Below are positions 3,942 through 39,974 of a stretch of 64,000 bases of DNA, in pieces. The stretch lies in the sequence record NC_047822.1. One strand, 5' to 3'. This DNA is from Escherichia phage phiLLS. The notes beneath the pieces are model-generated. The model saw only the letters and a list, made by a program, of their open reading frames with translations. It ran no database searches and was not told the origin of the DNA. The position numbers and the translations under genes were made by a program. Every line of letters begins with the position of its first letter. Positions within the stretch are counted from its first letter, which is position 1.

Positions 3942-4460
3942 ATGAATGTTGATGAGCTAACACAGCACCTCTTATCTAGAGGATTTGATACAGATAAATA
4001 TCATTGCTGGTTAAGTCCGGAAGGATGGCTAACAGTCCCGTTGTATGACTTCTCTGGGATGTTGAGGGGCTATCAAACTTATAATCCTTCTGCTCCAAAA
4101 GGTCATGGTAAGTGCCCCTTTGAAGCTAAATACTTTACTTATTCTACTACCCAGTGTGTATGGGGACTAGAAACTCTCAATGGAGATGAAAAAGTAGTAT
4201 TGATTGCTGAATCTGTATTTAAGGCAGTTGCGTTACATAATGCTGGTTATCCAGCCCTAGCAATGTTGGGTTCTTCTCCAGGAAAAGCGTTATTAAAGCA
4301 ACTGAAATTACTACCTTTTAAATTGGTAGCTGTCGGAGATAATGATCCTGCGGGTGAAAAATTTGCTAGAAAATTAAACGGCTTTGTTTCTCCCGTAGAT
4401 GTGGATGAGATGTCTACCGAAAACTTGAAAAATTTTCTTGCTATGAAGCTAAATTTCTAA
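3942..4460 (+). CDS. hypothetical protein, possible Toprim-like fold
   Basis: Start moved to the ATG after the promoter and RBS; VLIAES and VGDNDPAGEK motifs resemble Toprim Glu and DxD. Confidence 0.45.
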   Translation: MNVDELTQHLLSRGFDTDKYHCWLSPEGWLTVPLYDFSGMLRGYQTYNPSAPKGHGKCPFEAKYFTYSTTQCVWGLETLNGDEKVVLIAESVFKAVALHNAGYPALAMLGSSPGKALLKQLKLLPFKLVAVGDNDPAGEKFARKLNGFVSPVDVDEMSTENLKNFLAMKLNF

Positions 4461-4480
4461 TATAATATATCTTATAAATT
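4438..4480 (+). promoter_or_regulatory. T5-type early promoter driving a tRNA pair
   Basis: TTGCTA 4438-4443, TATAAT 4461-4466, spacer 17; tRNA begins at 4482. Confidence 0.55.
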
Positions 4481-4481
4481 C

Positions 4482-4570
4482 GGAAGAATAGCATAACGGT
4501 ATTGCAGCAGATTGCTAATCTGTCGGTTTGAAATATAGCCTTGTGGGTTCGATTCCCGCTTCTTCCGCCA
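4482..4570 (+). tRNA. tRNA-Ser (anticodon GCT), long variable arm
   Basis: Acceptor GGAAGAA/TTCTTCC, T-arm GTGGG-TTCGATT-CCCGC, anticodon loop TTGCTAA, 89 nt, CCA encoded. Confidence 0.6.
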
Positions 4571-4577
4571 AATTCTG

Positions 4578-4654
4578 GTTCTCAAGCTCATATGGTATGA
4601 GCACCCGGCTCATAACCGGAAGGTACGTAGGTTCGAATCCTCGGGGAGCCACCA
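4578..4654 (+). tRNA. tRNA with anticodon CAT (Met, fMet or Ile-lysidine)
   Basis: Acceptor GGTTCTC/GGGAGCC, T-loop TTCGAAT, anticodon loop CTCATAA. Confidence 0.55.
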
Positions 4655-7253: not shown

Positions 7254-7355
7254 AATTCTGTGTAGAGTTAAGTAAACCGGTAGCCAACCAGCTATCATTG
7301 CTGACATCGAATTCAGCCACAGATACCATTTTCATTAATAACTGAGGAAATAAGC

Positions 7356-8007: not shown

Positions 8008-8243
8008 TCAGTGCAGAACACGGAGCTAGCAATTCGGAAGTGCTGACTCATGATAAGCTGCCTATGTACTTGCGAAGCGGTCGTGTCCAAGACTCGGACT
8101 CTTGCACTGAAAACAATCAAACATTCTAGCGTGGTTGATGGGGAAACCAGCTTGGCTAGGGCAGAAGCTCGTTCGATTCGAGTGAAAGAATGGTTCTCGT
8201 AAGTCCGCACAAGTGATAACAGGTTCGAGTCCTGTCTAGAATG
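8008..8243 (+). ncRNA. structured RNA / tRNA-like region (unresolved)
   Basis: Long-range inverted repeat TCAGTGCAG/TTGCACTGA (8010/8102) and two T-loop-like motifs (TTCGATT near 8176, ACAGG-TTCGAGT-CCTGT at 8219-8235) with no standard cloverleaf. Confidence 0.3.
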
Positions 8244-8262
8244 ACATATTCTGGAGATTCTA

Positions 8263-8429: not shown

Positions 8430-8447
8430 ACGAAAGTTTACTTATTA

Positions 8448-8547
8448 TGTAGGTTCCGATAGATCGGCGGGTCTATTCTGGCATTTAAGAGAAGTCTCGC
8501 AAACTTCTTTGTCAGCCGTGGGGTTGGTAGCCTCCAGGTGGCCTACA
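8448..8547 (+). ncRNA. tRNA-like / structured RNA candidate (about 100 nt)
   Basis: Perfect 7-bp closing stem TGTAGGT/GCCTACA; internal 6-bp stem AGAAGT/ACTTCT with 7-nt loop CTCGCAA; no canonical T-loop. Confidence 0.3.
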
Positions 8548-8574
8548 CAATAAGTAAATTTATTAAAAATTCAT

Positions 8575-8620
8575 TTGCTATTCTGCTTTATTATCTGTAT
8601 AATATATTTTATAAAGTGAA
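8575..8620 (+). promoter_or_regulatory. T5-type early promoter
   Basis: TTGCTA 8575-8580, TATAAT 8598-8603, spacer 17. Confidence 0.55.
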
Positions 8621-8635: not shown

Positions 8636-8794
8636 ATGAAACACAAGATAGCTCAAGTTTTTATGGCATTATGGTGTATGCCAATAGCTATAACAGCATT
8701 TAATCTAGATACTTTTACTATAGAAGAAAAATGTATCGGATTAGTTAGCGGTTTTAGTATGCTGGGCTTATCTTTGCTGTGGTTAAAGAAATAA
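8636..8794 (+). CDS. small membrane protein (52 aa)
   Basis: Not in ORF track (under 60 aa); RBS GAGAAGGAAAG; two hydrophobic segments. Confidence 0.4.
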   Translation: MKHKIAQVFMALWCMPIAITAFNLDTFTIEEKCIGLVSGFSMLGLSLLWLKK

Positions 8795-9149: not shown

Positions 9150-9228
9150 AGATCGCTAGCTCAATAGGTTTAGTAGCATCCGACTTTTAATCGGAAGGTT
9201 CTGGGTTCGAGTCCCAGGCGATCTACCA
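9150..9228 (+). tRNA. tRNA-Lys (anticodon TTT)
   Basis: Acceptor AGATCGC/GCGATCT, anticodon stem TCCGA/TCGGA with loop CTTTTAA, T-arm CTGGG-TTCGAGT-CCCAG. Confidence 0.55.
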
Positions 9229-9246
9229 ATTTCAAGAAAAACGCAG

Positions 9247-9296
9247 TTGCTTGATGCTTAATTTCTTGTTATAATATTTATATAAATTGATGCGAA
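9247..9296 (+). promoter_or_regulatory. T5-type early promoter with no ORF downstream
   Basis: TTGCTT 9247-9252, TATAAT 9270-9275, spacer 17; followed by about 300 nt non-coding before tRNA-Ala. Confidence 0.55.
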
Positions 9297-9608
9297 AATA
9301 GCTGCCTAGATACCAGGTGTATGACGTCTACACTAGCAGAGCTACCGAAAAAGAGATCCTCAGGATAAACGTCGTAGCAAAATTAGTCTGGTATCCATCA
9401 ATTTAGTTCACTAAGGTATTAGCTCGACCTAGGACTGGCTGCCAAAAAGCACGATCCCTACGATTCGGGAGAAGTTCTAGATTAGTCCACTAGATTCAGC
9501 GGCAACTGAATAGTGTATTGGGTTTGCGAGATGACGCAGTTCCTTCCGCTCGAAGCGAAGGTGCTGTAGTTACGCCGAGCTAATAGCCTTAGTAAACTAA
9601 AGAATTTG
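9297..9608 (+). ncRNA. candidate promoter-driven non-coding RNA or tRNA-operon leader (about 310 nt)
   Basis: No ORF with RBS and no canonical tRNA fold; lies between a strong promoter and tRNA-Ala. Confidence 0.3.
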
Positions 9609-9684
9609 GGGGAATGGGTCTGCATGGAGTGGACACCTCGCTTGCACCGAGGACATCAGAACGGTTCGATTCCGTTATTCTCCA
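9609..9684 (+). tRNA. tRNA-Ala (anticodon TGC)
   Basis: Acceptor GGGGAAT/ATTCTCC, anticodon stem CCTCG/CGAGG with loop CTTGCAC, T-arm AACGG-TTCGATT-CCGTT; CCA not encoded. Confidence 0.55.
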
Positions 9685-9692
9685 CAAAATAC

Positions 9693-10079: not shown

Positions 10080-10084
10080 AATCT

Positions 10085-10215
10085 TGGAATATGCCGGAAT
10101 TGGTAGACGGGACTGCCGAATAGGTTTACTAGGAACATCCACTCCTAGAAATATACCTTAAAAGCGGTTGAGTTAAATGGTCTAACTCATGAAGGTTCAA
10201 ATCCTTCTATTCCTT
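10085..10215 (+). ncRNA. atypical tRNA-like region (about 130 nt)
   Basis: D-loop-like AATTGGTAGACG, good T-arm GAAGG-TTCAAAT-CCTTC at 10192-10208, but body too long; perfect 7-bp hairpin TGAGTTA/TAACTCA. Confidence 0.3.
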
Positions 10216-10444
10216 GATACATCAATGGCTCAAAGTGTAACGGTGCTATTTGATGCACTTGGAAAGACTTTCCCGACATGCGTTCGGGGGTAAGCTTCTG
10301 AGGCTAGAATAGAAGAGTTTCTGGGAGCCGCCACAATCGAAAATTCGTACTCGTCTTGAGCTGCGTGCAATAGGAGATAACTTGATTAGTATTCTAGAAC
10401 ATGCTAATTGAGGATGGTTTCGCTAACCCTGCGAGTTTTCAATT

Positions 10445-17792: not shown

Positions 17793-18544
17793 TGTCAGTA
17801 TTAGTCGGTTTACATGGTGAAGCTGGTTCGGGAAAAGATACCGTTGCAAAATTAATTATCGATTGGTGTAATGACACGTATCCAACGTGTTTATCCCGTC
17901 GTTATAGTTTTGCTAAGCCCGTTTATGAACTTGCATCCGTAATCCTCGGTGTAACTCCAGAGTTTTTAGGAGAGCGCAGGGGAAAAGAGATTGACCAATG
18001 GTTTACGGTCACACAATCTCAACTGGAGCGAGCCAGAGATGTGTGGTTTAAGTACGGTATCGATAAGTTTGAAGACTTCTCGTACGTTTGGCCTATTTTT
18101 GAGGAAAAATATCTTAATCCTCAACAACTTATCTCAGAGAATAAAGAAGACGGACTTTATAGTTTATTTATTTCTCCGAGAAAAATGTTACAGCTCGTAG
18201 GGACAGAGCTAGGAAGGCAGCTGGTGCATGAACGCATTTGGCTCATAATTCTGGAGCAATCCATCGCTAAAGACGACCCAGATGTCGCCGTAATAACAGA
18301 TGTTAGATTCCCCAATGAAGGAGAGTTACTCAGAGAAACAAACCATTTAGATATGGATTCTTTGATAGTAAATGTAGTACCCGCTGAGCAGAAGTTCACT
18401 ATTAAATCAGATCATCCATCTGAAAGTGGTATTCCTGCAAAATATATTACTCACGAATTAGTTAATAAATTCGATGGTATCAATAACCTTAAACTAGAAG
18501 TTTATAACTTCTGTGACTTAGAGCTAGAACCACTAGTTGGATAA
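17792..18544 (+). CDS. deoxynucleoside monophosphate kinase
   Basis: P-loop GLHGEAGSGKDT; 250 aa as in the T5 dNMP kinase; ATG overlaps upstream stop. Confidence 0.65.
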   Translation: MSVLVGLHGEAGSGKDTVAKLIIDWCNDTYPTCLSRRYSFAKPVYELASVILGVTPEFLGERRGKEIDQWFTVTQSQLERARDVWFKYGIDKFEDFSYVWPIFEEKYLNPQQLISENKEDGLYSLFISPRKMLQLVGTELGRQLVHERIWLIILEQSIAKDDPDVAVITDVRFPNEGELLRETNHLDMDSLIVNVVPAEQKFTIKSDHPSESGIPAKYITHELVNKFDGINNLKLEVYNFCDLELEPLVG

Positions 18545-26847: not shown

Positions 26848-27166
26848 TATTGAATCTGGTCTAGTAGACGGAGAAGATATTGTTAACTCCATGCTAGAAG
26901 TAACAGTAGATAATATTAATCCTATTTTGGCCAAAGAAACCTCCGATCTTATAGGACTCTCTAGCACATTTGATTCTTTGGCTAAATTAGCTTTAGACGA
27001 TGAAGAGATAACCAAAGAAGATCTCGCTACAGCTATGAATATGGCTATTAACGCTTACATTGGTAAACGTACCGATGAACTTGGTAAACAGATCAATAAG
27101 CGTGATACTACGCTAGGTCTTATGGAAACGGCCACTATGTTACGAAGTGGTAAACAACTTCACTAA
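26795..27166 (+). CDS. hypothetical protein
   Basis: Start uncertain (26729, 26795 or 26828); terminator follows. Confidence 0.35.
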   Translation: MTEKKNPLLEQMKEWESNIESGLVDGEDIVNSMLEVTVDNINPILAKETSDLIGLSSTFDSLAKLALDDEEITKEDLATAMNMAINAYIGKRTDELGKQINKRDTTLGLMETATMLRSGKQLH

Positions 27167-27172
27167 TTCTAG

Positions 27173-27208
27173 AGGCCAGGACTTAATTGTTCTGGCCTTT
27201 TATGTTTT
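27173..27208 (+). terminator. Rho-independent terminator
   Basis: GGCCAGGA...TTCTGGCC hairpin then TTTTATGTTTT. Confidence 0.6.
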
Positions 27209-27221
27209 CAAGGAACTTCAA

Positions 27222-27425
27222 ATGCAAGTATATGTCCTTACCAGAGATATAAATGAGTATAATCAGGATGGTGAGTATTTTGTAAAAGTATTCGCTGAAA
27301 AGCCAAGTAAACAACAATTATTAGATGCTGGAGTACCGGAAGACCAAGCTAAGTGTTTACTACAAGATAAAGAGTTTACTGGAGATGCTTACGAATGTTT
27401 CTACCTTAACTGTGAGACTATTTAA
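27222..27425 (+). CDS. hypothetical protein (about 67 aa)
   Basis: Start moved downstream of terminator to ATG after AAGGAAC. Confidence 0.4.
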   Translation: MQVYVLTRDINEYNQDGEYFVKVFAEKPSKQQLLDAGVPEDQAKCLLQDKEFTGDAYECFYLNCETI

Positions 27426-29122: not shown

Positions 29123-29258
29123 AAGATGCAATTATGGAAGCACTAGGAGCTGTTATTAATGAGAATAAAAAGGATTAATAATTCCTAATACATGAGCCTC
29201 TACGGAGGCTCTAAAATAAAAAGAAGGTCATCCAGACCTTAAAAATGAGAGATAAATA

Positions 29259-30143
29259 ATGTATAACTTTAAAGATAAACTAAGACAAAATGCTGGTAAA
29301 ACAAAACCTAAAGAGAACAATAATGTTCCTAATGCCAAAGTATTATCATTTCCAGAACTGTCTCAAGAAGAAAAAGATAAGTTAGCATTTATGTTTGATG
29401 CCCTTCTAGAGCTAAATGGACGTTTATATTCCTCACTCAATATTAATGAGAAACGTTTAGTAGAGATGTTTTGTAAGCGTTATCAAGTTACTTCAAAGGG
29501 CAATTCTTATAAAGAAGGTGAGAAAGCATTCACAGTCTTAAAGATTAGCGCATATGCACATCGTTTCTTAGTTTATGGGTTACAGATGGAATACTTCACC
29601 ATCCCATCATTTAGCTCTTTCCATATCTTTGAAGATGAACGAATGAATATTGATGATCTCTATGGGGATACATACAAATACTCAGGAAGTCCATTCCATG
29701 ATGCATTAAGGAGTTACCCAACTAACTATTTACCAGTTAGGGCATCACAAGGTAAAGCTAGCATCTTCGCTGTTTACTCAGGATCTAAAGCATCGGATCT
29801 AGAAACTTATATATTTAAAGAGCGTAAATCTGTGCTTCCAGATGAAGCATTGTATAACAATCCATTGCTTCCAGAAAAAGAACCAGAAAAAGTTGATGTA
29901 ACCCCACCAATCCCATCTGATTCTCAGTATTTAATTTATGAGAAACAAGTTAAGTTATCCCTAGAAATTGGGTTAGTTACACCGCTTGCTGCAGCGTTCA
30001 TAAATAGATACCTAGAAATCCCAGAAGAGTTCCACCAACGTTATAGTACGAATGTTCAGATAACGGATGAACTAATTGCGTTAGCAAAAGATACACCTAC
30101 AGATACTGAGGCGTATCAAAAAGCATACCAAGAGTTACTGTAA
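29259..30143 (+). CDS. hypothetical protein (294 aa); last early gene before the repeat region
   Basis: RBS GAGAGATAAATA; followed by hairpin at 30150-30186. Confidence 0.55.
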   Translation: MYNFKDKLRQNAGKTKPKENNNVPNAKVLSFPELSQEEKDKLAFMFDALLELNGRLYSSLNINEKRLVEMFCKRYQVTSKGNSYKEGEKAFTVLKISAYAHRFLVYGLQMEYFTIPSFSSFHIFEDERMNIDDLYGDTYKYSGSPFHDALRSYPTNYLPVRASQGKASIFAVYSGSKASDLETYIFKERKSVLPDEALYNNPLLPEKEPEKVDVTPPIPSDSQYLIYEKQVKLSLEIGLVTPLAAAFINRYLEIPEEFHQRYSTNVQITDELIALAKDTPTDTEAYQKAYQELL

Positions 30144-30576
30144 GATCCTGCATGTCTCGGTGCACAATACCTGTACCGAGACAGAAATACAAACTCTCGT
30201 TGACAGATAGCTAAATGTATGTTATCATAACTCTATGAGTTAATAGAATTAACCATTTAGAGTTGCCACACAGAAGGTGTGGTGGTTCAGTAATTTAAAA
30301 TTACTAACTTGTAGCGGAGGATACGGAGCGACAGGACAAGTTAATAAGTAATTTAATATAAATTGCTAGAAACATCACGAGACCTTCTGGCGGGGGCAAA
30401 GCTCTATATGAGAACCCTGGGGGATCTTATATTTAAAATAAAAGTAAAACTTTTGACCACATAATTTACATTCAAGATGATACACCTGTTGCCGCTCTTC
30501 TGTTAGGATGGCACAACACTTTCCTAGAAACTCCAGAGTTCTCACGAGATACCACTCTTTCTAGGAACATATACTA

Positions 30577-30614
30577 GGCGGTTAATACAGGGCGGTTATA
30601 GGGAGGGCGGTTAT
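30577..30614. repeat. three direct copies of GGCGGTTA
   Basis: Read directly at 30578, 30591 and 30606. Confidence 0.6.
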
Positions 30615-30656
30615 TTCTAGAAGACATTTTTTGAAAACACATTTCCAGAAATTACT

Positions 30657-31256
30657 GTCGGATTTGCACACTGATATTCTAGAAATTTATGGTAGGATTT
30701 GCACAAATGCCTAAGTTTTTAGGAACTCTTACTCTCCTGAAAATAGCAGCATTATTTCGGGCCGAAGGCCCATGATTGCCTGAGTTTTTAGAGCCACAGA
30801 AATTTTCACTTGTCAAGCTATTTTGCCCCATTTTGCTAATAAAATTTCGCTTTTTCTGCACCTATCTCAAATTAACCCAAGTTATCTCACATCTCCTCCA
30901 AAATCCCCGCGGATCAGGTGCTCCGCACCAAACATGCGCTACATCCTTCTAGCCCCCAAATTTCTCTCACTCTCTCATCTTCTCCTCAAACCCACACAAT
31001 CACACACCCTCCAATCGAAGTCACAAAAATCTTGTCGGATTCGCACATCTTAATCCTAGAAAAACCGTGTCGGATTTGCACATACTCCACAGGATTGATG
31101 CGCAGCATCGGATTGCTGGAGTTTTTGGAAAAATTCATTGTCGGATTTGCACACTATAAAAATTTTTCGGGTCGGATTTGCACACTACCAAAAATTGTCG
31201 GATTTGCACATACGTGCCCGCACGTAACACCCGTGGAGCAATGTCGGATTTGCACA
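30657..31256. repeat. iteron array: 8 copies of 14-bp GTCGGATTTGCACA (two with 1 mismatch)
   Basis: Copies at 30657, 30692, 31034, 31069, 31140, 31171, 31197, 31243; non-coding. Confidence 0.8.
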
Positions 31257-31259
31257 AAA

Positions 31260-31281
31260 GCGCAGGGCAATTGCCCTGCGC
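31260..31281. repeat. perfect 22-bp palindrome GCGCAGGGCAATTGCCCTGCGC
   Basis: Read directly; sits between the two repeat families. Confidence 0.8.
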
Positions 31282-31284
31282 TAA

Positions 31285-31500
31285 ATACGAATGATAATAA
31301 GAATCATTCTCATTTAAAAAGCGGAATGAGAATGATAATAATTCGCATTTAGAAAGTGAAATGAGAATCAATCTCATTTAAGAAAGGGAATGAGAACTAT
31401 TCAAAAAGTGAAATGATTCTCATTTAGGAAAGGAAATGATTATCGGTTAGATAGTGGAATGCGAATGATAATGATTTGCATTTAAGAATGGAAGTGAGAA
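31285..31500. repeat. array of about 9 AATGAGAAT-type motifs, several as inverted pairs
   Basis: GGAATGAGAATGATAAT, GAAATGAGAATCAATCTCATTT, GGAATGAGAAC, GAAATGATTCTCATTT and others. Confidence 0.7.
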
Positions 31501-31520
31501 ACACTGTTATTTAAGTTATC

Positions 31521-31623
31521 CACAGACTTATCAACAGCACGATTTGACTTGACAGAATCCTAGCCATTTTGAAGCGTTATTAACAGACTTATCCACAGCT
31601 TATCCTACTGTATAAATATACAG
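31521..31623. repeat. left inverted repeat with DnaA-box-like TTATCCACA motifs
   Basis: ACAGACTTATCCACAGCTTATCCTACTGTATAAATATACAG (31583-31623) matches the RC of 34631-34671 with 1 mismatch; outer arms match imperfectly. Confidence 0.75.
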
Positions 31624-31744
31624 TATTCCTACGTAGTGAATAATTCTAATATACCGCTAAAACGTCCTGAATCGCATTCTAACGCGTTTAATTTTGGTGG
31701 GGATACTAAAACAAGGGGGTATTTAACTGGAGGCATGGAAAAAC

Positions 31745-31775
31745 GGGGAGCTAATCCCCGTCGTTCTCAGAGTAG
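31745..31775 (-). terminator. Rho-independent terminator ending the minus-strand 7-gene operon
   Basis: On minus strand ACGGGGATTAGCTCCCCGT hairpin followed by TTTTT. Confidence 0.55.
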
Positions 31776-31876
31776 CGGGCAACCGTTACGCTTTGCCCAC
31801 TCCCGCCACTCATCTTGATGTCTAGATTTGCGACGGCGTACTAAAAACCGCTTATACCAGTGATTAAACCATCGTT

Positions 31877-32080
31877 TCATAAACCATCCTCCGGTAATTG
31901 ATGCGTGATCTTTTCCTCTTCCCCATAGGAATCGACCAAATGCTGATAATAACCATCGTGATCATAAATCACTTTATCATACTCGCCACGCTCGACCGCT
32001 TGCCGGTTTTCTGGCGTATCGGGCACGTAAAAAACGTCAACCATTGTACTGATTTTGGTTACAACAATTTTATTGCTCAT
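31877..32080 (-). CDS. hypothetical acidic protein (67 aa), last gene of the island operon
   Basis: RBS GGGGG; codirectional with six upstream genes. Confidence 0.45.
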   Translation of the reverse strand: MSNKIVVTKISTMVDVFYVPDTPENRQAVERGEYDKVIYDHDGYYQHLVDSYGEEEKITHQLPEDGL

Positions 32081-32098
32081 AATAACCCCCGTTATTAA

Positions 32099-32257
32099 TT
32101 ATTTGCGTAAATATACGCTTGCCAATAGTCCAGCTAGAAAGCCCGCCGATACACCAAATGAAGCCACACCGGGAACACTAGCACCATGAGCATATAAAGC
32201 CCAGCAAATTACATAAGGCAACAACGGAAACATGCCAGCTATTAAAAACTTTTTCAT
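32099..32257 (-). CDS. small membrane protein (52 aa)
   Basis: Not in ORF track; MKKFLIAGMFPLLPYVICWALYAHG...; ATGA overlap with upstream stop. Confidence 0.4.
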   Translation of the reverse strand: MKKFLIAGMFPLLPYVICWALYAHGASVPGVASFGVSAGFLAGLLASVYLRK

Positions 32258-32598
32258 TGCGCCACCTTTCGAAACGCTGTTTCAATACTATCCGCAGTGG
32301 ATTGAATATACGCGCCTTTCATTACTAGGCGCTCGGTGCATATCTTGCGGAAAATATTAATAAAATCATCTTCATTTTCTGCAATTAACGCTTCACCCAT
32401 AACCTGAACGTCACAAGATGCAAAGGTCAAAAATTGAAACGCTAGTTCACGGGCAACGACCGCATTAATCTTATAATGCGCTTTGCCCTCATAAATATTA
32501 ATAACGCCCTTATAAGCTGGTGAAAGCTGGTTTAAATAGTTTGCTAACAATGCCGGGCGGCAATTAGCAACAAAGCGGTTGCCTTCATAAATAACCAT
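32254..32598 (-). CDS. hypothetical protein (114 aa)
   Basis: Start set at MVIYEG (TAAaATG junction with upstream gene); ORF track extends to 32637. Confidence 0.45.
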   Translation of the reverse strand: MVIYEGNRFVANCRPALLANYLNQLSPAYKGVINIYEGKAHYKINAVVARELAFQFLTFASCDVQVMGEALIAENEDDFINIFRKICTERLVMKGAYIQSTADSIETAFRKVAQ

Positions 32599-32599
32599 T

Positions 32600-32812
32600 T
32601 TATAACACCCCACGAAACGCAGCGTAAAAGGTGGCAAAGTGTTTAACCGTTTCAGCGATCACGTTGCCGCGCTTGTCAAATTTCTTTTCTGTAACACGAA
32701 AGGCATTCTTATTACGTGCTACATATTCGATTTTACAATCTTCACGCTCGAACGTGTTAACATCCACCAGCTTAAAGCCTTTCGAACGAGCAAGAGAAAC
32801 GTTGCGGATCAT
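32600..32812 (-). CDS. hypothetical basic protein (70 aa)
   Basis: RBS AAGGAGAATAAAA. Confidence 0.45.
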   Translation of the reverse strand: MIRNVSLARSKGFKLVDVNTFEREDCKIEYVARNKNAFRVTEKKFDKRGNVIAETVKHFATFYAAFRGVL

Positions 32813-32814
32813 TT

Positions 32815-32970
32815 TTATTCTCCTTTACTAGTCATGCAGCCCAGCAGATAAGAAAAAACGGCGATACCCGCGCCGACAATAACGGCGTGAACGTCGAAAG
32901 CTATAGCAAAAAGTGATAAAATAGCACCCAAGATACCTGCTAGAATTGACCGAAAAATAACCATTTTCAT
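32815..32970 (-). CDS. small membrane protein (51 aa)
   Basis: Not in ORF track; MKMVIFRSILAGILGAILSLFAIAF...; RBS AGGGGAATG. Confidence 0.4.
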   Translation of the reverse strand: MKMVIFRSILAGILGAILSLFAIAFDVHAVIVGAGIAVFSYLLGCMTSKGE

Positions 32971-33010
32971 TCCCCTAGTTAATGGGGCGAAAGTAACGCC
33001 CCGTTATTAA

Positions 33011-33241
33011 TTACATTAAAACAATTTTTGCAGCTTGTTTTTTAGTACAGTGTTCCGCTTTCAGGGTATCCAGCAAAAAGCCCGCTGTTTGCTGATCAAT
33101 CTTATCAGCGTTGTATAGTTCTTGGATGGTGTTATAGGTTTTAGCAATGCCGAACTCCTGCACCATTTCATGAATAACAACACGATTAGATACCCAACCT
33201 TGCGCGGTGAACAGATGACTAGCAGAAGAATAAGCAACCAT
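33011..33241 (-). CDS. hypothetical protein (76 aa)
   Basis: Start set at MVAYSS after RBS GGAGG; ORF track extends to 33298. Confidence 0.45.
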   Translation of the reverse strand: MVAYSSASHLFTAQGWVSNRVVIHEMVQEFGIAKTYNTIQELYNADKIDQQTAGFLLDTLKAEHCTKKQAAKIVLM

Positions 33242-33358
33242 TTTAAACCTCCAAATTTTTGGGAAAATTTTCAATCCACCGTTTTGGTGTAAAAGCATTA
33301 TAACAAAAAAGGCCGCCTATTATGGCGACCTTTACAAAACTTTACACTAAATTAATTA

Positions 33359-34363
33359 TTACTCGCTTTCGGTGCTAGTGGTAAAAGTAGAAATATCAAT
33401 ACCTTTCACCATTTCATCGATCATTTCAGCGATGTTAAAACTTTGCACCATTTCTAACATTGCCGCTTCCATAGCGGCCCCTGCTACCGCTTTCGCTTTC
33501 TGGTTGCTTGGGGCATACTGGTCAACCGCTACGCTCAGCAGGTTGGCAATTACTACTCGACCGATAGGCGTATCAATATAACCTTTAATCATGAACGGTG
33601 CTTTTTTAGCCGCTACTTTCGTAATTTGAGTAAGTGCAATTTTACCCGCTTCCAGTTTTGCAGCGTTTACAACAGCGGATTTATTAGCGGCAACAATGTT
33701 AGCAATCTTGGTCATAGTATTTTTTCCTTTGTTTTCAGTGATTTGAGTATTAACGCTTTGAGTGTTAGAATTTACAACATGGTTTTCTGTATTGTCAACT
33801 GGTTTTAGCGTAAATCCAGCATTTGCAACATTTGATTCATTCCCATATTCTAAATAATCGCTAGGGATCAACATGTTGCCACTAGCGCGTTCAAAACATA
33901 ACACGCCAGTTGTAGAAATTACATCACTATCAGCACTTTTGTAATTAGCTGATAGTTCACGCCAAATGCTAGTTAATAACGATCCGACACTATCAGTCCT
34001 GATATTACTTACTTTTGTTGCTGTTACTTGCTCTTTTTCTTGCACGTTATATAATCGCGCAATGTAGCCACTATTAGATTCACTATAACCAACAATGATA
34101 AAATCAATATCACTCCCACGTTGATTGCGGAAAATGTGATAATCACGGTTGAAAATTACTAGCGCCCTTTTCTGGTCTAGTAATTGTGTGAAATCTTCAA
34201 CTGAATAATGAGTATCATTACTGTCTAAAATTTCATCATGAATCTTTTCAACCATGCTAGCGGTATGTTGTACACTTGCCGCGCTACTACCATCTAGCAG
34301 GTTGCGCAAACTACCCTTTACAATAGTTGCGTTTGCTGGTACTGCAATTCTAGTAAAAGACAT
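33359..34363 (-). CDS. hypothetical protein (334 aa), first gene of the island operon
   Basis: Strong RBS GAGGGAGA; Ala/Lys-rich C-terminal half; no recognisable catalytic motif. Confidence 0.55.
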   Translation of the reverse strand: MSFTRIAVPANATIVKGSLRNLLDGSSAASVQHTASMVEKIHDEILDSNDTHYSVEDFTQLLDQKRALVIFNRDYHIFRNQRGSDIDFIIVGYSESNSGYIARLYNVQEKEQVTATKVSNIRTDSVGSLLTSIWRELSANYKSADSDVISTTGVLCFERASGNMLIPSDYLEYGNESNVANAGFTLKPVDNTENHVVNSNTQSVNTQITENKGKNTMTKIANIVAANKSAVVNAAKLEAGKIALTQITKVAAKKAPFMIKGYIDTPIGRVVIANLLSVAVDQYAPSNQKAKAVAGAAMEAAMLEMVQSFNIAEMIDEMVKGIDISTFTTSTESE

Positions 34364-34630
34364 TTTCTTGTCTCCCTCGTTAATCGGTGAGTAAATGATA
34401 AAGGTATTTTCTTTCTAGGGGCAAATATTATTTTACCTTTTTATTTTCCTTGCCTAGCGCCTAGTTTTATGCTAACCGCGCAGCGGTACAGTAAAGAGCA
34501 AAACACGGTGAAGCCGCTAGGGCGGCGCATTGAGGCTTTACTTTAATATTACCCCCACTGCATTTAGCTCGTTAGAAAGCGATTTAGGCCGCTTAAAATT
34601 GATTGCAGTTGTTAACACTACCTTTCTACC

Positions 34631-34740
34631 CTGTATATTTATACAGTAGGATAATCTGTGGATAAGTCTGTGTAAAAGTCCTTATATCGCCGCCTATCGT
34701 GTCAAATCATTTTGTGCTGTGGATAACGTTGGGGATAACT
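34631..34740. repeat. right inverted repeat (partner of 31521-31623) with DnaA-box-like motifs
   Basis: CTGTATATTTATACAGTAGGATAATCTGTGGATAAGTCTGT and downstream TGTGGATAAC. Confidence 0.75.
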
Positions 34741-34776
34741 TAAATGATAGTGGTTCTCACTCAGGCCGATAGTTTC

Positions 34777-34831
34777 TTATAGTTATTATTTCTATCGGTT
34801 ACGATTTCTTATAGTTATTATTTCTCATTAA
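34777..34831. repeat. tandem direct repeat TTTCTTATAGTTATTATTTCT x2
   Basis: Two 21-bp copies separated by ATCGGTTACGA. Confidence 0.75.
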
Positions 34832-35017
34832 TTTATAAGTATATTATATATTATGGAATAGTTAGTTGGCTAATGAGATTTTCCGTGATTAATAGTCTGC
34901 TAATAGTTTAAGCCGTTACAATCCACCAGCATGATTATCGTTCTAGCAATTATTAGTCTGCTATCTTTCCGATGCATACTAACAAATAAAAGTCAATTAA
35001 TTTATTTCATAAAATAA

Positions 35018-35062
35018 GTAGTTATCCACTGGAAAATAAAAGTCAAGTGGATAACTAGGAAA
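35018..35062. promoter_or_regulatory. inverted pair of DnaA-box-like sites (TTATCCACT / AGTGGATAA)
   Basis: AGTTATCCACTGG and AAGTGGATAACTA about 30 bp apart; more GATAA motifs to 35190. Confidence 0.5.
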
Positions 35063-35501
35063 ATTTCATTTTTGCTTCTGGGGATAAGTTATCAACAAGG
35101 CTAGAATGCGCCTAAAACGCCCTACAACGCAGTAAAGTTTTTAGCCATCCCATCATAAGGGGATAAGCCGTTTATCGCTGCCACGAGCTTTTTAGATTTT
35201 GTCAAGTAGGGCAAGGCAAATATAAATGAAAAAATTACTTGCTTATCTGCTGGGTTTTATGGTATTCGCGCGCCCGTTTCTTTTAATTTTAGGCCGTCGC
35301 CGGACGCGGTGCGAGTATTTGCCTTCTTTACATTTCTTTACAAAAATAAGGTTGCGCCTTTTTCGTTGTTTGTTATTATTTATCTCGTAGGGCGGCAATG
35401 ACGAACTACACGGCGGGAAGTTTACCGCCGCGCTCTTTAAAAATTGGGTATATCTTAAAGTCTATCGGCGGTAAACTTATCAATTATAAGGAATCGACGA
35501 T

Positions 35502-35705
35502 ATGAAACAAACTTTACTAATCACTGGTAAACCTAGCAAGGCACTGGACAGCAAAACAAAAAATTTGTTGACAGTAGCGCAAAGATCGGTAAAATATCGA
35601 TTTAAGCAGTACAAGAAAGGCCGCCAGCAAGGTCTGGAAATGATCTGGCGAAATATTATGATTGACCTGAAAGAAAATCATAAAAAACTGCAAAAAATAG
35701 TTTGA
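35502..35705 (+). CDS. hypothetical basic protein (67 aa)
   Basis: RBS AAGGAATCGACGAT. Confidence 0.4.
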   Translation: MKQTLLITGKPSKALDSKTKNLLTVAQRSVKYRFKQYKKGRQQGLEMIWRNIMIDLKENHKKLQKIV

Positions 35706-35933
35706 CTTCCTAGCCGATAGGCTTTAAGATGTACCCAGTTCGATGAGAGTGATAACTTGATACAATTTGACGGCCGGTACTTGCCATAATGTGCCCCGCC
35801 CCCTAACTGGGATATAGCGGCCTGAGTGGAGTTCTTTAATTTGATTATAATGGCGAGTGGATTTTTTCTTATTATCTGCTACTTTCTAGCAGATAATGCG
35901 GAACAATCCACTGAATAAACTGGAGTTTATACC

Positions 35934-36185
35934 ATGAAAAACGTTATTACCGCGCCGAAAGTTGGTCAATCCGTTTTTATTCCTTTCGTTACTAAAACGG
36001 ACGAATTAACCGGAAAAGCCGAACGTATTAAAGGTGCGGCGCTTATGCCGTTCGATACAATCGACGCGGTATACGCTGAAAATGAACGCAGCAACAACGG
36101 AAAGCCCGTTTTTAGCGTTCGCGTTAAATCCGGCGACGTTGTAAAGGTTGTTCAACGCAACGAAAAATGGGAAGCTGTGTTGTAA
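35934..36185 (+). CDS. hypothetical protein (83 aa)
   Basis: RBS CTGGAGTTTATACC. Confidence 0.5.
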   Translation: MKNVITAPKVGQSVFIPFVTKTDELTGKAERIKGAALMPFDTIDAVYAENERSNNGKPVFSVRVKSGDVVKVVQRNEKWEAVL

Positions 36186-36283
36186 TTTAGTGTTAACTTT
36201 ATATTCCCCTGAAATATGGGGAATATAACGATTAACATTATGTTAATCTTATCCCTTAAATTAAATCAACAGGAGTTACAATC

Positions 36284-36691
36284 ATGACTAACGTTAAAAC
36301 CGCAAAATTCGCATGGAATGAAGAAAACACTCAGAAAGCTGTTTCCATGTACCAGCAGTTAATCAATGAAAACGGTTTAGATTTCGCAAATAGCGACGGC
36401 CTGAAAGAGATTGCAAAAGCAGTAGGCGCGGCTTCTCCCGTATCCGTTCGCTCAAAATTGACCAGCGCGAAAGCGTATCAGAAAAGCGATAAGCCGCGCA
36501 AAGTTGGCGGCGGCAGTTCAATCCGCAAAGCTCACTATGTACGCGTTATTGCAAAACATGCCATTGATTCCGGCATTATCAAAGACGCTGACGATCTGGC
36601 ATCACTGGAAAGCGCAAAACTGGAAACGCTGGACGCAGTAGCACAACTGTTAGGCGTTGCCGATGAAGTAAAACAAGCCGCAGGCGAATAA
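36284..36691 (+). CDS. pre-early-region protein, possibly A2-like (135 aa)
   Basis: RBS CAGGAGTTACAATC; position upstream of A1-like gene; assignment by synteny and size only. Confidence 0.4.
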   Translation: MTNVKTAKFAWNEENTQKAVSMYQQLINENGLDFANSDGLKEIAKAVGAASPVSVRSKLTSAKAYQKSDKPRKVGGGSSIRKAHYVRVIAKHAIDSGIIKDADDLASLESAKLETLDAVAQLLGVADEVKQAAGE

Positions 36692-36749
36692 ATTTAATTA
36701 GTGGGGAATACTCCCCACTATAATTTCCCTTAAATCAGGAGTTATTAAA

Positions 36750-36947
36750 ATGATCTTTTACCCTACTGAATCGTTAATTCTAGGCTTGTTTATTATGGCG
36801 GCCTCATTACTATTCGCTTATTTTCAAAATGATCTGGATTCGTATTATTTTAAGCGCAAAGCTAATCTAGCAAAGCGTTTGGGCTTATTTTGCTTTATTG
36901 CCGCCGTTGTTTGTGGTGTTAGTTCTAGCCTGATGCCGATTAGTTAA
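36750..36947 (+). CDS. small membrane protein (65 aa)
   Basis: RBS CAGGAGTTATTAAA; two TM helices. Confidence 0.4.
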   Translation: MIFYPTESLILGLFIMAASLLFAYFQNDLDSYYFKRKANLAKRLGLFCFIAAVVCGVSSSLMPIS

Positions 36948-37043
36948 ATGTTGCAAATTATAACGCCTATTATTCAAGGCGTTATATCTGGCAATATTGC
37001 CAATAACAAACGTTTTTAATCCCTTTAATGGAGTTTTATTATC

Positions 37044-38714
37044 ATGGTTATTTCCGCAGAAAAACAAACCCAGATCCTCAATCTTGCCGCTGATTTCAAT
37101 TTCTATGGTAAACGTCTGCGCGCTACTAAACTGGAAGTTTGTGACGATATATCAAAAGCGGTTTACGATACTGCAAAACATTCCACCGCGATTTGTGACT
37201 GGTTGGAAGCAAATAAACCAGCGAAACCAAAAGCGGCGAAAGTAGCAAAAGCCATTAAAAACGATGACCGCCCTGAAGCCGCCGGAGTTATTTCTAGCAC
37301 GGTGGAGCAATGGGAAGTAAAGCAGGGCAACCGCTTCATTATCACATCAATCCAGAACAACACGTTCCCGCATAAAAACTTTTTAGCCTCGCTCGAGCAA
37401 TATGCCCAGTTTATTGGCGCTGATTTGCTTGTTAGCAAGTTTATTTATAACAAAAACGGTTTTCAAAATGGGGAAGGCGCGGACGGAATAAAATACGATT
37501 CCGCGTTTGACAAATATATCTGCAATAAGAACGTATTTTTAAACAATCGCCGTTTTGCTTTCATGGCTGAGATTAATGTTTTGCCCACCGCAGATTATCC
37601 GCTATCTGGATTCGCTGAAACTGCAACGGCTTTAAATATTGAGGGTCTGGCAATTGGGGCGGCTAAAATCACCGCCGAAAGCGTGCCAGCTTTAAAAGGT
37701 GAAGTAGTGCGCCGCATGTATTCAACGGGAACGGCAACGCTAAAAAACTATATTCAGCAAAAAGCAGGGCAAAAAGCGGAGGCGCTACATAACTTTGGGG
37801 CGCTGATTGTTGAGTTCGACGAAGACGGTGAATTTTTTGTTCGCCAGCTTGAAACGATGGATGAAAGCGGCGTTTTTTACGATTTGAATATTTGCGCTAC
37901 TCCCGCCGGATGCTATGAAACATCGGGGCATGTTTTAGGCTTGCAATATGGTGACGTCCACGCTGAAAAACTAGATGAAGAGTGCGCCGCAGCGTCATGG
38001 GGACACGGTGACACCTACGGGCTTGTGGATATTCTCAAGCCAAAATATCAATTCGTCCATGACGTGCATGATTTTACATCACGCAACCATCACAACCGCG
38101 CCTCTGGTGTATTCCTAGCAAAACAATACGCCGCCGGACGTGATAAGGTTCTGGATGATCTTATCGATACGGGGCGCGTACTGGAAGCAATGGAGCGCGA
38201 TTTCTCGCAAACAATCATTGTTGAATCTAACCATGATCTGGCGTTATCTCGTTGGCTTGATGATCGTAATGCTAACATTAAAGACGACCCAGCAAACGCG
38301 GAACTATATCACCGCCTTAATGCTGCAATTTACGGAGCTATTGCAGAAAAAGACGACACTTTCAACGTGCTAGATTATGCGCTGCGCAAGGTTGCAGGCT
38401 GCGAGTTTAACGCTATTTTCCTAACGACTGACCAATCATTTAAAATTGCAGGCATCGAGTGCGGCGTACACGGTCACAATGGCATAAACGGCAGTCGTGG
38501 CAATCCGAAACAGTTCAAGAAATTGGGCAAATTAAACACGGGGCACACTCATACCGCCAGCATTTACGGCGGCGTATATACCGCTGGCGTGTCTGGTAGT
38601 CTGGACATGGGCTATAATGTTGGCGCGTCAAGCTGGACGCAAACGCATGTTATTACCTATGCAAACGGTCAGCGCACTTTGATTGACTTTAAAAACGGTA
38701 AATTTTTCGCGTAA
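37044..38714 (+). CDS. A1-like pre-early protein (calcineurin-like metallophosphoesterase motifs)
   Basis: 556 aa as T5 A1; GDVHAEK, GVHGHNG, GHTHT motifs; RBS AATGGAGTT. Confidence 0.6.
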   Translation: MVISAEKQTQILNLAADFNFYGKRLRATKLEVCDDISKAVYDTAKHSTAICDWLEANKPAKPKAAKVAKAIKNDDRPEAAGVISSTVEQWEVKQGNRFIITSIQNNTFPHKNFLASLEQYAQFIGADLLVSKFIYNKNGFQNGEGADGIKYDSAFDKYICNKNVFLNNRRFAFMAEINVLPTADYPLSGFAETATALNIEGLAIGAAKITAESVPALKGEVVRRMYSTGTATLKNYIQQKAGQKAEALHNFGALIVEFDEDGEFFVRQLETMDESGVFYDLNICATPAGCYETSGHVLGLQYGDVHAEKLDEECAAASWGHGDTYGLVDILKPKYQFVHDVHDFTSRNHHNRASGVFLAKQYAAGRDKVLDDLIDTGRVLEAMERDFSQTIIVESNHDLALSRWLDDRNANIKDDPANAELYHRLNAAIYGAIAEKDDTFNVLDYALRKVAGCEFNAIFLTTDQSFKIAGIECGVHGHNGINGSRGNPKQFKKLGKLNTGHTHTASIYGGVYTAGVSGSLDMGYNVGASSWTQTHVITYANGQRTLIDFKNGKFFA

Positions 38715-39254: not shown

Positions 39255-39974
39255 ATGAAGATTACCCGTAATTTCCCGCATGTTTCCCGCGTCATGATTT
39301 GGGATCTGGATGGCACTATCGTTAACTCATTCCATCGCGTAGCGCCTTGCTTTGATAGTGAGGGCAATCTAGATCTAAATAAGTATAAAAATGAAGCGTG
39401 TAAACATGCTTTGATAATGCAAGATACACTGTTACCGCTTGTTACCTATATGCGCCAGTGCATGAATGACGCCAACACGTTAAACATTATTTGTACCGCT
39501 CGACTAATGAGCAAATCAGATTACTATTACCTACGGAAGCAAGGGCTGCGAGGGCGTGGGGGTAGCAATATCCGCGTATTTTCCCGCGATACACTGCACA
39601 AATATTTTGAAGCTGATAAGGTTAGCGAAATATACCACAGCAAAGACGCTATATATAAAAGCCACTATTTTGAGTTATTTAAGCAATTATATCCGAACGC
39701 TGATTTCACGATGATTGATGATCATAAAGGCGTGCTATCAGCGGCGGCATCATACGGATTTAAAACGCTGGACGCGCAAGCCGTTAACGATATTCTATCG
39801 ATTGGGGTTACATTGATAGGTGAAACCTTTATCGATGAATCTCTTGAGGATGATAATGATTATCAGTTCCTGGCCGACCGCCTGCAATTATGTTGGGAAG
39901 GTATGACCGAAGAAGAACGCGCAGAATATAGTTGCAGCCCGCAACAATATATTGAGAAATTAAAAGTTGCGTAA
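39255..39974 (+). CDS. HAD-family 5'-deoxyribonucleotidase (dmp-like)
   Basis: N-terminal WDLDGTIV HAD motif; 239 aa; RBS AACGGAGAACG. Confidence 0.6.
   Translation: MKITRNFPHVSRVMIWDLDGTIVNSFHRVAPCFDSEGNLDLNKYKNEACKHALIMQDTLLPLVTYMRQCMNDANTLNIICTARLMSKSDYYYLRKQGLRGRGGSNIRVFSRDTLHKYFEADKVSEIYHSKDAIYKSHYFELFKQLYPNADFTMIDDHKGVLSAAASYGFKTLDAQAVNDILSIGVTLIGETFIDESLEDDNDYQFLADRLQLCWEGMTEEERAEYSCSPQQYIEKLKVA

Follow-up and report, generated by a model that had tools for sequence, protein, structure and literature searches.

The window analyzed here comprises 64,000 nucleotides of one strand from Escherichia phage phiLLS (NC_047822.1), and a tRNA gene region occupies its first 13 kb, where 21 tRNA genes lie on the plus strand. 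Within that region, a promoter of the T5 early type (9247-9275) is followed by approximately 330 nt without a credible open reading frame (ORF) or cloverleaf before a tRNA-Ala gene begins at 9609. A first-pass annotation had described this arrangement as an early promoter leading into a long ORF-free stretch, and the sequence, the ORF list, ARAGORN, and Rfam all agree with that description. Escherichia phage fp01 (Tequintavirus) shares 99.5% identity with the stretch from 9229 to 9608, and the conserved stretch is found in 425 to 530 phage records, nearly all from T5-like Salmonella, Escherichia, and Klebsiella phages. Judged by homology, the interval comprises the RNA2H gene and its own strong early promoter, P13b. 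This gene has already been annotated, as T5 rna2H, and is not a new object. The features of the locus are as follows.

9237 to 9276, plus strand: T5 early promoter, the equivalent of P13b, with an A-tract (9237-9241), a -35 element TTGCTT (9247-9252), a 17-nt spacer, and a -10 element TATAAT (9270-9275)
9283 to 9405, plus strand: leader hairpin P1 in its long form, predicted by folding, with the stem UAAAUUGAUG (9283-9292) / CAUCAAUUUA (9396-9405)
9293 to 9395, plus strand: insert of approximately 103 nt in P1, with the inner helix GAUACCAG (9309-9316) / CUGGUAUC (9388-9395)
9406 to 9597, plus strand: RNA2H structural module, 192 nt (covariance-model match of 238.6 bits), made up of a closing helix, junction strands, hairpins H-b, H-c, H-d, and H-e, and two pseudoknots
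9406 to 9426, plus strand: 5' arm of the closing helix (13 of 20 pairs changed on both sides, 99.4% of cells paired); the annotated mature 5' end comes after G9416
9417 to 9588, plus strand: mature RNA2H, 172 nt, as annotated in T5 and mapped to the window, 5' UAUUAGCUCG ... CGAGCUAAUAGCC 3'
9432 to 9437 with 9483 to 9488, plus strand: pseudoknot 1, GGACUG with UAGUCC in the loop of H-c (3 of 6 pairs changed on both sides, 95.8% of cells paired)
9440 to 9443 with 9501 to 9504, plus strand: pseudoknot 2, UGCC with GGCA in the loop of H-d (1 of 4 pairs changed on both sides, 95.2% of cells paired)
9455 to 9470, plus strand: hairpin H-b, variable, with at least four versions among relatives (two pairs changed on both sides in a 35-sequence set, 4 of 4 in a 16-sequence set)
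9476 to 9494, plus strand: hairpin H-c, UCUAG/CUAGA, whose loop is the partner in pseudoknot 1 (5 of 5 pairs changed on both sides)
9495 to 9510, plus strand: hairpin H-d, UUCAG/CUGAA, whose loop holds the pseudoknot 2 partner, GGCAAC (5 of 5 pairs changed on both sides)
9526 to 9575, plus strand: long hairpin H-e, directly continuous on its 3' side with the closing helix (15 of 17 pairs changed on both sides)
9576 to 9597, plus strand: 3' arm of the closing helix, with a bulged G at 9586; the annotated mature 3' end is C9588
9598 to 9608, plus strand: short A/U-rich linker, at which an ORF is inserted in some relatives
9609 to 9685, plus strand: tRNA-Ala(UGC), the next gene on the presumed shared transcript (ARAGORN; atypical, scoring only 20 bits in Rfam)

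The promoter belongs to a family that recurs throughout the window. The motif TTGCT-N17/18-TATAATA was counted 13 times, compared with 0.03 expected, and 0 of 100 shuffles matched that count; a promoter cassette of 56 to 59 nt constitutes a repeat family (repeat families D2/D4). A generic sigma-70 scan did not list the promoter at 9247-9275, because TTGCTT agrees with TTGACA at only three of six positions, and the family-specific motif count was used in its place. The homologous site is labeled promoter P13b in T5 and BF23 and "putative P13b-like" in phage S114, while the other T5 record, AY587007, marks it merely as a repeat. From a promoter of the P13b type, transcription would be expected to start at approximately 9282-9283. 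The first-pass annotation had set this locus apart from other promoters of the same type on the grounds that those are followed closely by an ORF or a tRNA gene. Such neighbors were indeed found elsewhere, for instance, an ATG at 8636 behind the promoter at 8575-8604 and tRNA-Ser at 4482 behind the promoter at 4438-4467, but the RNA2H case is not unique. The promoter at 31-60 precedes approximately 800 nt without a convincing ORF before tRNA-Arg, a stretch in which the only plus-strand ORFs of at least 40 amino acids encode 45 and 44 residues and which is annotated as RNAX in BF23.

The identity of the interval with T5 rna2H is evidenced by a BLAST alignment of the T5 feature, which matches window positions 9417-9588 with 98.3% identity over 172 of 172 nt. 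Three records carry rna2H as an annotated gene: AY543070 (T5), NC_042564 (the BF23 tRNA region), and AJ604531 (Salmonella phage 5). GenBank describes the T5 feature, a misc_RNA of 172 nt, as "RNA2H, stable RNA with unknown functions." In AY543070, tRNA-Lys, tRNA-Val, promoter P13b, rna2H, tRNA-Ala, and tRNA-Leu follow one another on one strand, and the BF23 record has the same features. The phiLLS locus shares with T5 the gene itself, the upstream P13b, and a tRNA-Ala gene downstream, but it lacks tRNA-Val between tRNA-Lys and the promoter, and its tRNA-Ala is of a different, atypical type. In most of the other records inspected, the interval is unannotated. Both the standing of RNA2H as a "stable RNA" and the positions of its ends are as annotated in GenBank, and since the annotated mature RNA is shorter than the primary transcript, it would have to be processed. 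The guess of a noncoding RNA or processed leader in the first-pass annotation was thus well placed, given the orthology to rna2H and the plus-strand covariation described below. No paper describing RNA2H was found in the literature searched, and as far as we found, its complex, covariation-backed fold and its range over several genera have not been curated so far.

Several lines of evidence indicate that the interval is not protein coding, as far as comparison among relatives can tell. The plus strand from 9283 to 9608 holds only two ORFs, one of 29 amino acids starting at a GTG (9317-9406) and one of 21 amino acids starting at a TTG (9518-9583). The former sits in a segment that is missing from approximately 80% of relatives, and the latter sits in a hairpin that has been swapped wholesale between lineages. 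A conserved small ORF with ribosome footprints had been named as one finding that would overturn the noncoding reading; the ORFs present are not conserved among relatives, no ORF combining conservation with a start codon and a ribosome-binding site was found, and the indels that separate relatives measure 94 and approximately 22 to 26 nt, which are not multiples of three. Also, in the fully inspected feature tables of Markadamsvirinae and Sugarlandvirus, no coding sequence is annotated within the element, with the one exception of SmurfNell, in which a minus-strand ORF lies inside the element and also overlaps tRNA-Ala. ARAGORN detected no tRNA or tmRNA in 9229-9608, between tRNA-Lys (9150-9228) and tRNA-Ala (9609-9685), in keeping with the earlier remark that no canonical cloverleaf follows the promoter. 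An Rfam 15 scan, which took in riboswitches, RNase P, 6S, tmRNA, ROOL, GOLLD, HEARO, and ribozymes, returned no family in 9290-9608, either at the gathering score or at an E value of ≤10, and no tRNA-clan match was present in the interval at that E value. The whole transcript has a folding energy of -100.9 kcal/mol (z = -4.2). The strand of the RNA is the plus strand, because many G.U pairs would become A.C mismatches on the other strand and because the covariance model of the module scores 236 bits in the forward direction, versus 33 bits in reverse.

Comparative analysis supports a conserved plus-strand fold, in which a closing helix of 21 bp, bearing one invariant bulged G, is combined with four hairpins and two pseudoknots. 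Inside the closing helix, a conserved junction strand is followed by H-b, H-c, and H-d, a second conserved junction, and H-e. Among 35 distinct Markadamsvirinae sequences, 113 of the 192 columns of the module are invariant, 96.6% of cells pair, compared with 30 to 42% when partners are slid by one to three columns, and 14 pairs have changed on both sides. The closing helix and the pseudoknots are invariant within this subfamily, and more distant relatives were therefore needed to reveal covariation in them. In an alignment of 16 sequences from five lineages, 94.8% of cells pair (33 to 41% with slid partners), both sides have changed in 48 of the 64 pairs, and none of 500 shuffles attained the observed values. 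These counts are inflated for the nested helices, to which the alignment was fitted by the model, and reflect only approximately five independent lineages. For instance, the H-c stem UCUAG/CUAGA is replaced by UCUGAU/AUCAGA in SE20, bobsandoy, and EH3, and in H-e a C-G pair passes through U.G to U-A in BF23, while CCUUC/GAAGG becomes CCCUC/GAGGG in EH3. The bulged G at 9586 is invariant in Tequintavirus, Epseptimavirus, Sugarlandvirus, My1, and PR1. Conservation of the fold across T5-like phages, which the first-pass annotation had proposed as a check, was thus found, together with compensatory changes.

The two pseudoknots are absent from the covariance model, and so their pairing counts as independent evidence. 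In this fold, the loops of two neighboring hairpins pair with one 5' junction strand. Pseudoknot 1 is recognizable by eye as GAGUCG:UGGCUC in IME260, GAGUCG:UGACUC in KpGranit, and GAACCA:UGGUUU in PR1, and pseudoknot 2 is recognizable as ACC:GGU in IME260 and UUGC:GCAA in My1. Directly after the 5' strand of pseudoknot 2 lies a conserved A-rich tract (9444-9448), with A39, A40, A42, and A46 invariant. Minimum-free-energy folding offers two competing helices, CUAGGACU/AGUUCUAG and CACUA/UAGUG. These were set aside in favor of H-c plus pseudoknot 1 because two compensatory H-c pairs occur in SE20, bobsandoy, and EH3 and because the pseudoknot covaries in IME260, My1, and PR1.

A pair between A9489 and U9514 also covaries (A-U, G.U, and G-C) and falls outside what the adopted fold explains. 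The loop of H-e bears only a loose likeness to a T-loop, since it varies at positions that are conserved in T-loops. A tRNA-like 3' end, in which GCC would be completed by an added A, was considered as well and is weakened by the PR1 sequence, which has GCU.

Covariance-model searches indicate that the RNA2H family spans several genera of Demerecviridae. Klebsiella phage IME260 (Sugarlandvirus) matches the model of the module at 80.6 bits (E = 1e-21), and its neighborhood is that of the window, with a T5-type promoter, directly followed by the RNA and then by tRNA-Ala and tRNA-Leu. KpGranit also carries a homolog, as detected by the covariance model. Pectobacterium phage My1 matches at 47.8 bits (E = 3e-12) and has, in order, the promoter, a P1-like hairpin, the RNA, and, 3 nt later, a tRNA-Leu(TAG) that is not annotated in the record. 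Providencia phage PR1 was recognized by a broadened model (55.6 bits, E = 2e-13); there, a ribosome-binding site and a protein gene, rather than a tRNA gene, lie downstream of the RNA. Vibrio phage pVp-1 gave no match even with filters off, and neither did the gap of 336 nt ahead of its tRNA-Leu(TAG).

Beyond these phages, viral, metagenomic, and genomic collections were scanned for motifs, which recovered only T5-like or Sugarlandvirus contigs besides chance matches; three motif matches in metagenome-assembled bacterial genomes were judged to be chance, and a 14-mer scan produced mostly chance loci. A blastn search in distant mode with the whole transcript found no match in E. coli genomes, and hence there is no sequence-level sign that the RNA mimics a host RNA. 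RNA2H has no homology to the other T5 stable RNAs (RNA2, RNAIV, and RNA1), from which it follows that "2H" does not stand for a homolog of RNA2. The species 1 and species 2 RNAs of T4 (rnaC and rnaD) are likewise small stable RNAs without an assigned function, encoded in a phage tRNA cluster, where they are cotranscribed with tRNAs and cut out. They come after the tRNAs, whereas RNA2H heads its transcription unit, and they have no detectable homology to RNA2H: with filters off, the RNA2H model scored no more than 7.7 bits at any point of the T4 tRNA region and approximately 3 bits or less over rnaC and rnaD. ROOL and GOLLD, which are associated with tRNA genes in phages and prophages, are similarly pseudoknotted phage noncoding RNAs beside tRNA genes. 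They measure approximately 580 to 800 nt, compared with approximately 170 to 190 nt for RNA2H, and homology is not supported, there being no Rfam match at an E value of ≤10.

How the mature RNA might arise is suggested by the position of its ends. The annotated ends, 9417 and 9588, map near the center of the 21-bp closing helix, with approximately 10 to 11 bp on each side, at the bulged G. Mapped on the helix, the T5 ends taken from the GenBank feature leave a 2-nt 3' overhang. RNase III would be expected to leave such a geometry on cutting a stem of approximately 22 bp, as in rRNA precursors. At 21 bp, with 99.4% of cells paired, the stem formed by the flanks has the length of approximately 20 bp or more looked for in an RNase III substrate. 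The geometry of the ends suggests that RNase III may excise RNA2H. RNase III stalks in 16S and 23S rRNA precursors and at T7 early RNA sites likewise consist of a helix formed by the flanks around a mature RNA, a comparison drawn here from geometry and from what is generally known of RNase III. Similar ends could also be generated by RNase P, by RNase E, or through trimming by exonucleases.

We propose the following sequence of events. Host RNA polymerase would start at approximately 9282 and produce a polycistronic precursor that spans RNA2H, tRNA-Ala, and tRNA-Leu. RNA2H would then be excised by a nuclease specific for double strands, most likely RNase III of the host, cutting midway along the closing helix, while the 3' trailer would be released from the RNA2H precursor when RNase P cleaves where tRNA-Ala begins. 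The compact, pseudoknotted core may resist nucleases and so accumulate as the annotated "stable RNA." The closing helix also marks the edge of the module. Insertions in relatives fall just outside it; in L071, for instance, an 87-amino-acid ORF separates RNA2H from tRNA-Ala.

Taken as a whole, our explanation is that the locus is the RNA2H gene with P13b and that its transcript is processed and acts in trans as an accessory RNA, to which we assign a probability of roughly 0.6. In trans, mature RNA2H would bind or sequester a protein, which may be a host RNA-processing or defense factor or a phage protein. This protein-binding, trans-acting role is the weakest step and is put forward tentatively, with odds well short of even. 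A role in trans is favored because the conservation goes beyond what a cleavage site needs, with unpaired nucleotides and pseudoknot loops strongly conserved, and because the module is intact whether it precedes a tRNA gene or a protein gene. RNA2H is dispensable, since FFH_1 carries a natural internal deletion in which the interior was lost between two GCUCGA repeats and since the T5 mutants T5Mos (deletion 30661-38625) and T5-123 (deletion 29191-32442) are viable (PMC11464382). Provided that the mutant coordinates are those of AY543070, both deletions span the RNA2H locus. A marginal role, or one in cis only, would also be compatible with dispensability under laboratory conditions.

A cis-only role is the most serious competitor, although we consider it unlikely. 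RNA2H would then be only a processed leader or spacer, a cis-acting module for processing or insulation, keeping the promoter-proximal 5' end apart from the tRNAs, or for stabilizing and folding the tRNA precursor, and it would fall idle once excised. Its location directly between a strong promoter and tRNA genes in Markadamsvirinae, Sugarlandvirus, and My1 speaks for such a module, as do its dispensability and the resemblance of the long flanking helix to a processing site. For processing, however, the helix alone would do, and yet the approximately 150 nt inside it, including unpaired nucleotides and two pseudoknots, are conserved across genera with differing flanks. Moreover, the PR1 copy precedes a protein gene, ORFs inserted between RNA2H and the tRNA in relatives leave RNA2H undisturbed, and the curators of T5, BF23, and phage 5 list a stable, that is, accumulating, RNA. 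That last annotation, of an excised stable RNA, also speaks against the very unlikely case of a leader that senses a ligand or factor, in the manner of a riboswitch or attenuator, and controls transcription of the downstream tRNAs. The position between promoter and genes and the complex pseudoknotted fold with invariant unpaired purines would suit such a sensor, but no terminator-like hairpin with a U-run occurs between the element and the tRNA on the plus strand, no Rfam riboswitch matches at an E value of ≤10, and the 21-bp closing helix leaves no alternative expression platform. Least probable of all is that the conserved entity is not an RNA, the interval instead encoding a small protein or serving as a feature of the DNA itself, for instance, an origin, a nick site, or the target of a homing endonuclease. 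Short ORFs do exist, and the T5-like tRNA region is rich in homing endonuclease genes; against this stand the lack of ORF conservation, in segments absent or swapped in relatives, the many G.U pairs and the strand asymmetry of the model score, and the annotation of the major T5 nick elsewhere, at 39660 in AY587007.

Within the preferred reading, that of a processed RNA acting in trans, a more ambitious version deserves mention. The T5 tRNA region carries counterdefense functions, with tRNA-Lys acting against PARIS and tRNA-Tyr acting against a retron (PMC11464382; bioRxiv 10.1101/2023.03.15.532788). RNA2H might be the founder of an uncurated class of structured phage RNAs, approximately 170 nt in length with a double pseudoknot and conserved across the T5-like phages of Enterobacterales, that binds and neutralizes a host factor and so contributes to counterdefense beside the tRNAs, a proposal that we regard as improbable in this full form. 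The host target could be, for example, an RNA-targeting defense nuclease or an RNA-processing enzyme; a catalytic role for RNA2H is also conceivable. RNA2H is not the suppressor of PARIS, since tRNA-Lys alone restored infection of PARIS-carrying cells (PMC11464382).

The T5 tRNA region has eight annotated "stable RNAs with unknown functions." In the scan of the window, none of the T5 stable RNAs reached an Rfam family score, save for a tRNA-model match inside RNAX, and no paper on these eight RNAs was found in the literature searched. With a covariation-backed fold, a defined range in Demerecviridae, and both natural and laboratory deletions, the function of RNA2H is now directly testable. If RNA2H proves to be a decoy or inhibitor, a structured-RNA mechanism would be added to phage counterdefense. 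Otherwise, RNA2H still lends itself well to the founding of a new Rfam family, which would improve the annotation of hundreds of T5-like genomes in which the interval is blank.

Finally, the leader hairpin upstream of the module has two forms. In T5 and most relatives, P1 is a short, GNRA-capped hairpin, GAUGAGGA-GAAA-UCCUCAUC, whereas the long hairpin, with an insert of approximately 100 nt, is found in the window as it is in fp01 and 82 other records. The insert is present in 83 records in all, always at one place. Among relatives, its inner helix shows C-G, U-A, and U.G combinations, plus one C.A combination. Aligned to an internally deleted RNA2H, in which module positions 9-68 are joined to 167-190, the insert scores 41, compared with 11.2 ± 4.2 for shuffles (0 of 2,000 as high) and with no more than 28 for any of 614 other segments of the window, a statistic that is somewhat favorable, as the junction of this "mini-RNA2H" was picked after a first local alignment. 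The covariance model aligns the insert likewise, albeit weakly. The insert therefore looks like a degenerate, internally deleted, partial tandem duplicate of RNA2H nested in the P1 stem. Hairpin and insert both lie outside the annotated mature RNA2H.

The insert at 9293-9395, carried in the long form of P1 (9283-9405), the leader hairpin upstream of the T5 stable RNA gene rna2H (RNA2H), looks from its sequence like a degenerate duplicate of RNA2H with an internal deletion. Its similarity to an internally deleted copy of RNA2H scores 41, compared with 11.2 +/- 4.2 for shuffles, and the insert is present in 83 phage records.

Within the RNA2H structural module itself (9406-9597), positions 9489 and 9514 (module positions 84 and 109) covary, with A-U in 33 sequences, G.U in one, and G-C in one. 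Both positions fall outside the helices of the RNA2H fold model, and their covariation could reflect a tertiary pair or, alternatively, a piece of an alternative helix, CACUA/UAGUG. At approximately 2223-2345, Escherichia phage FFH_1 (NC_024139) has a natural deletion of the RNA2H interior between two GCTCGA direct repeats. This deletion spares P1 and the promoter, as well as the two strands of the closing helix, the 21-bp helix that joins the ends of the module.

In Providencia phage PR1, the stretch just 5' of the RNA2H homolog (approximately 17950-18115) is G+C-rich and has obvious hairpins; no T5-type promoter adjoins this stretch upstream of the homolog, and the transcription context of the homolog is unlike that in other lineages. 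In Vibrio phage pVp-1, 336 nt that carry no gene annotation (26892-27227) lie immediately upstream of tRNA-Leu(TAG), at the position that RNA2H occupies in Pectobacterium phage My1. The RNA2H covariance model found no significant match in this pVp-1 stretch, which may hold a different or very divergent RNA.

Orthologs of other annotated stable RNAs of T5/BF23 lie elsewhere in the window:

7256-7328, RNA3 ortholog
8122-8246, RNA2 ortholog
8447-8549, RNAIV ortholog
10083-10226, RNA1 ortholog
10227-10333, RNAI ortholog
10339-10443, RNAIII ortholog

Three of these six bear a tRNA-like label in the records. When the window was scanned with Rfam, no family reached its gathering score in any of the six intervals, and ARAGORN called none of them.

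At the start of the window, about 800 nt (73-872) separate a T5-type promoter (31-60) from tRNA-Arg (873), which lies downstream. On the + strand, the only ORFs of at least 40 aa in this stretch encode 45 and 44 aa. Its counterpart in BF23, matching at 97.8%, is annotated as "RNAX, stable RNA with unknown functions." This unexplained RNA is far larger than RNA2H. A tRNA-like Rfam match lies inside it, at 298-369.

The tRNA-Ala(UGC) called by ARAGORN at 9609-9685 is atypical: it falls below the Rfam tRNA gathering score, its best match being the tRNA-Sec model at 20 bits. Because its 3' end reads ...CUCCACAAAA, it has no encoded CCA. It is like the tRNA-Ala of Klebsiella phage IME260 and unlike that of T5. 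Two Rfam tRNA matches have no ARAGORN call, namely, the one within the RNAX counterpart (35.5 bits) and another at 4577-4651 (40.3 bits). The latter is immediately 3' of tRNA-Ser, at a position where a second tRNA-Met is annotated in the T5 record and tRNA-Ile in that of BF23.
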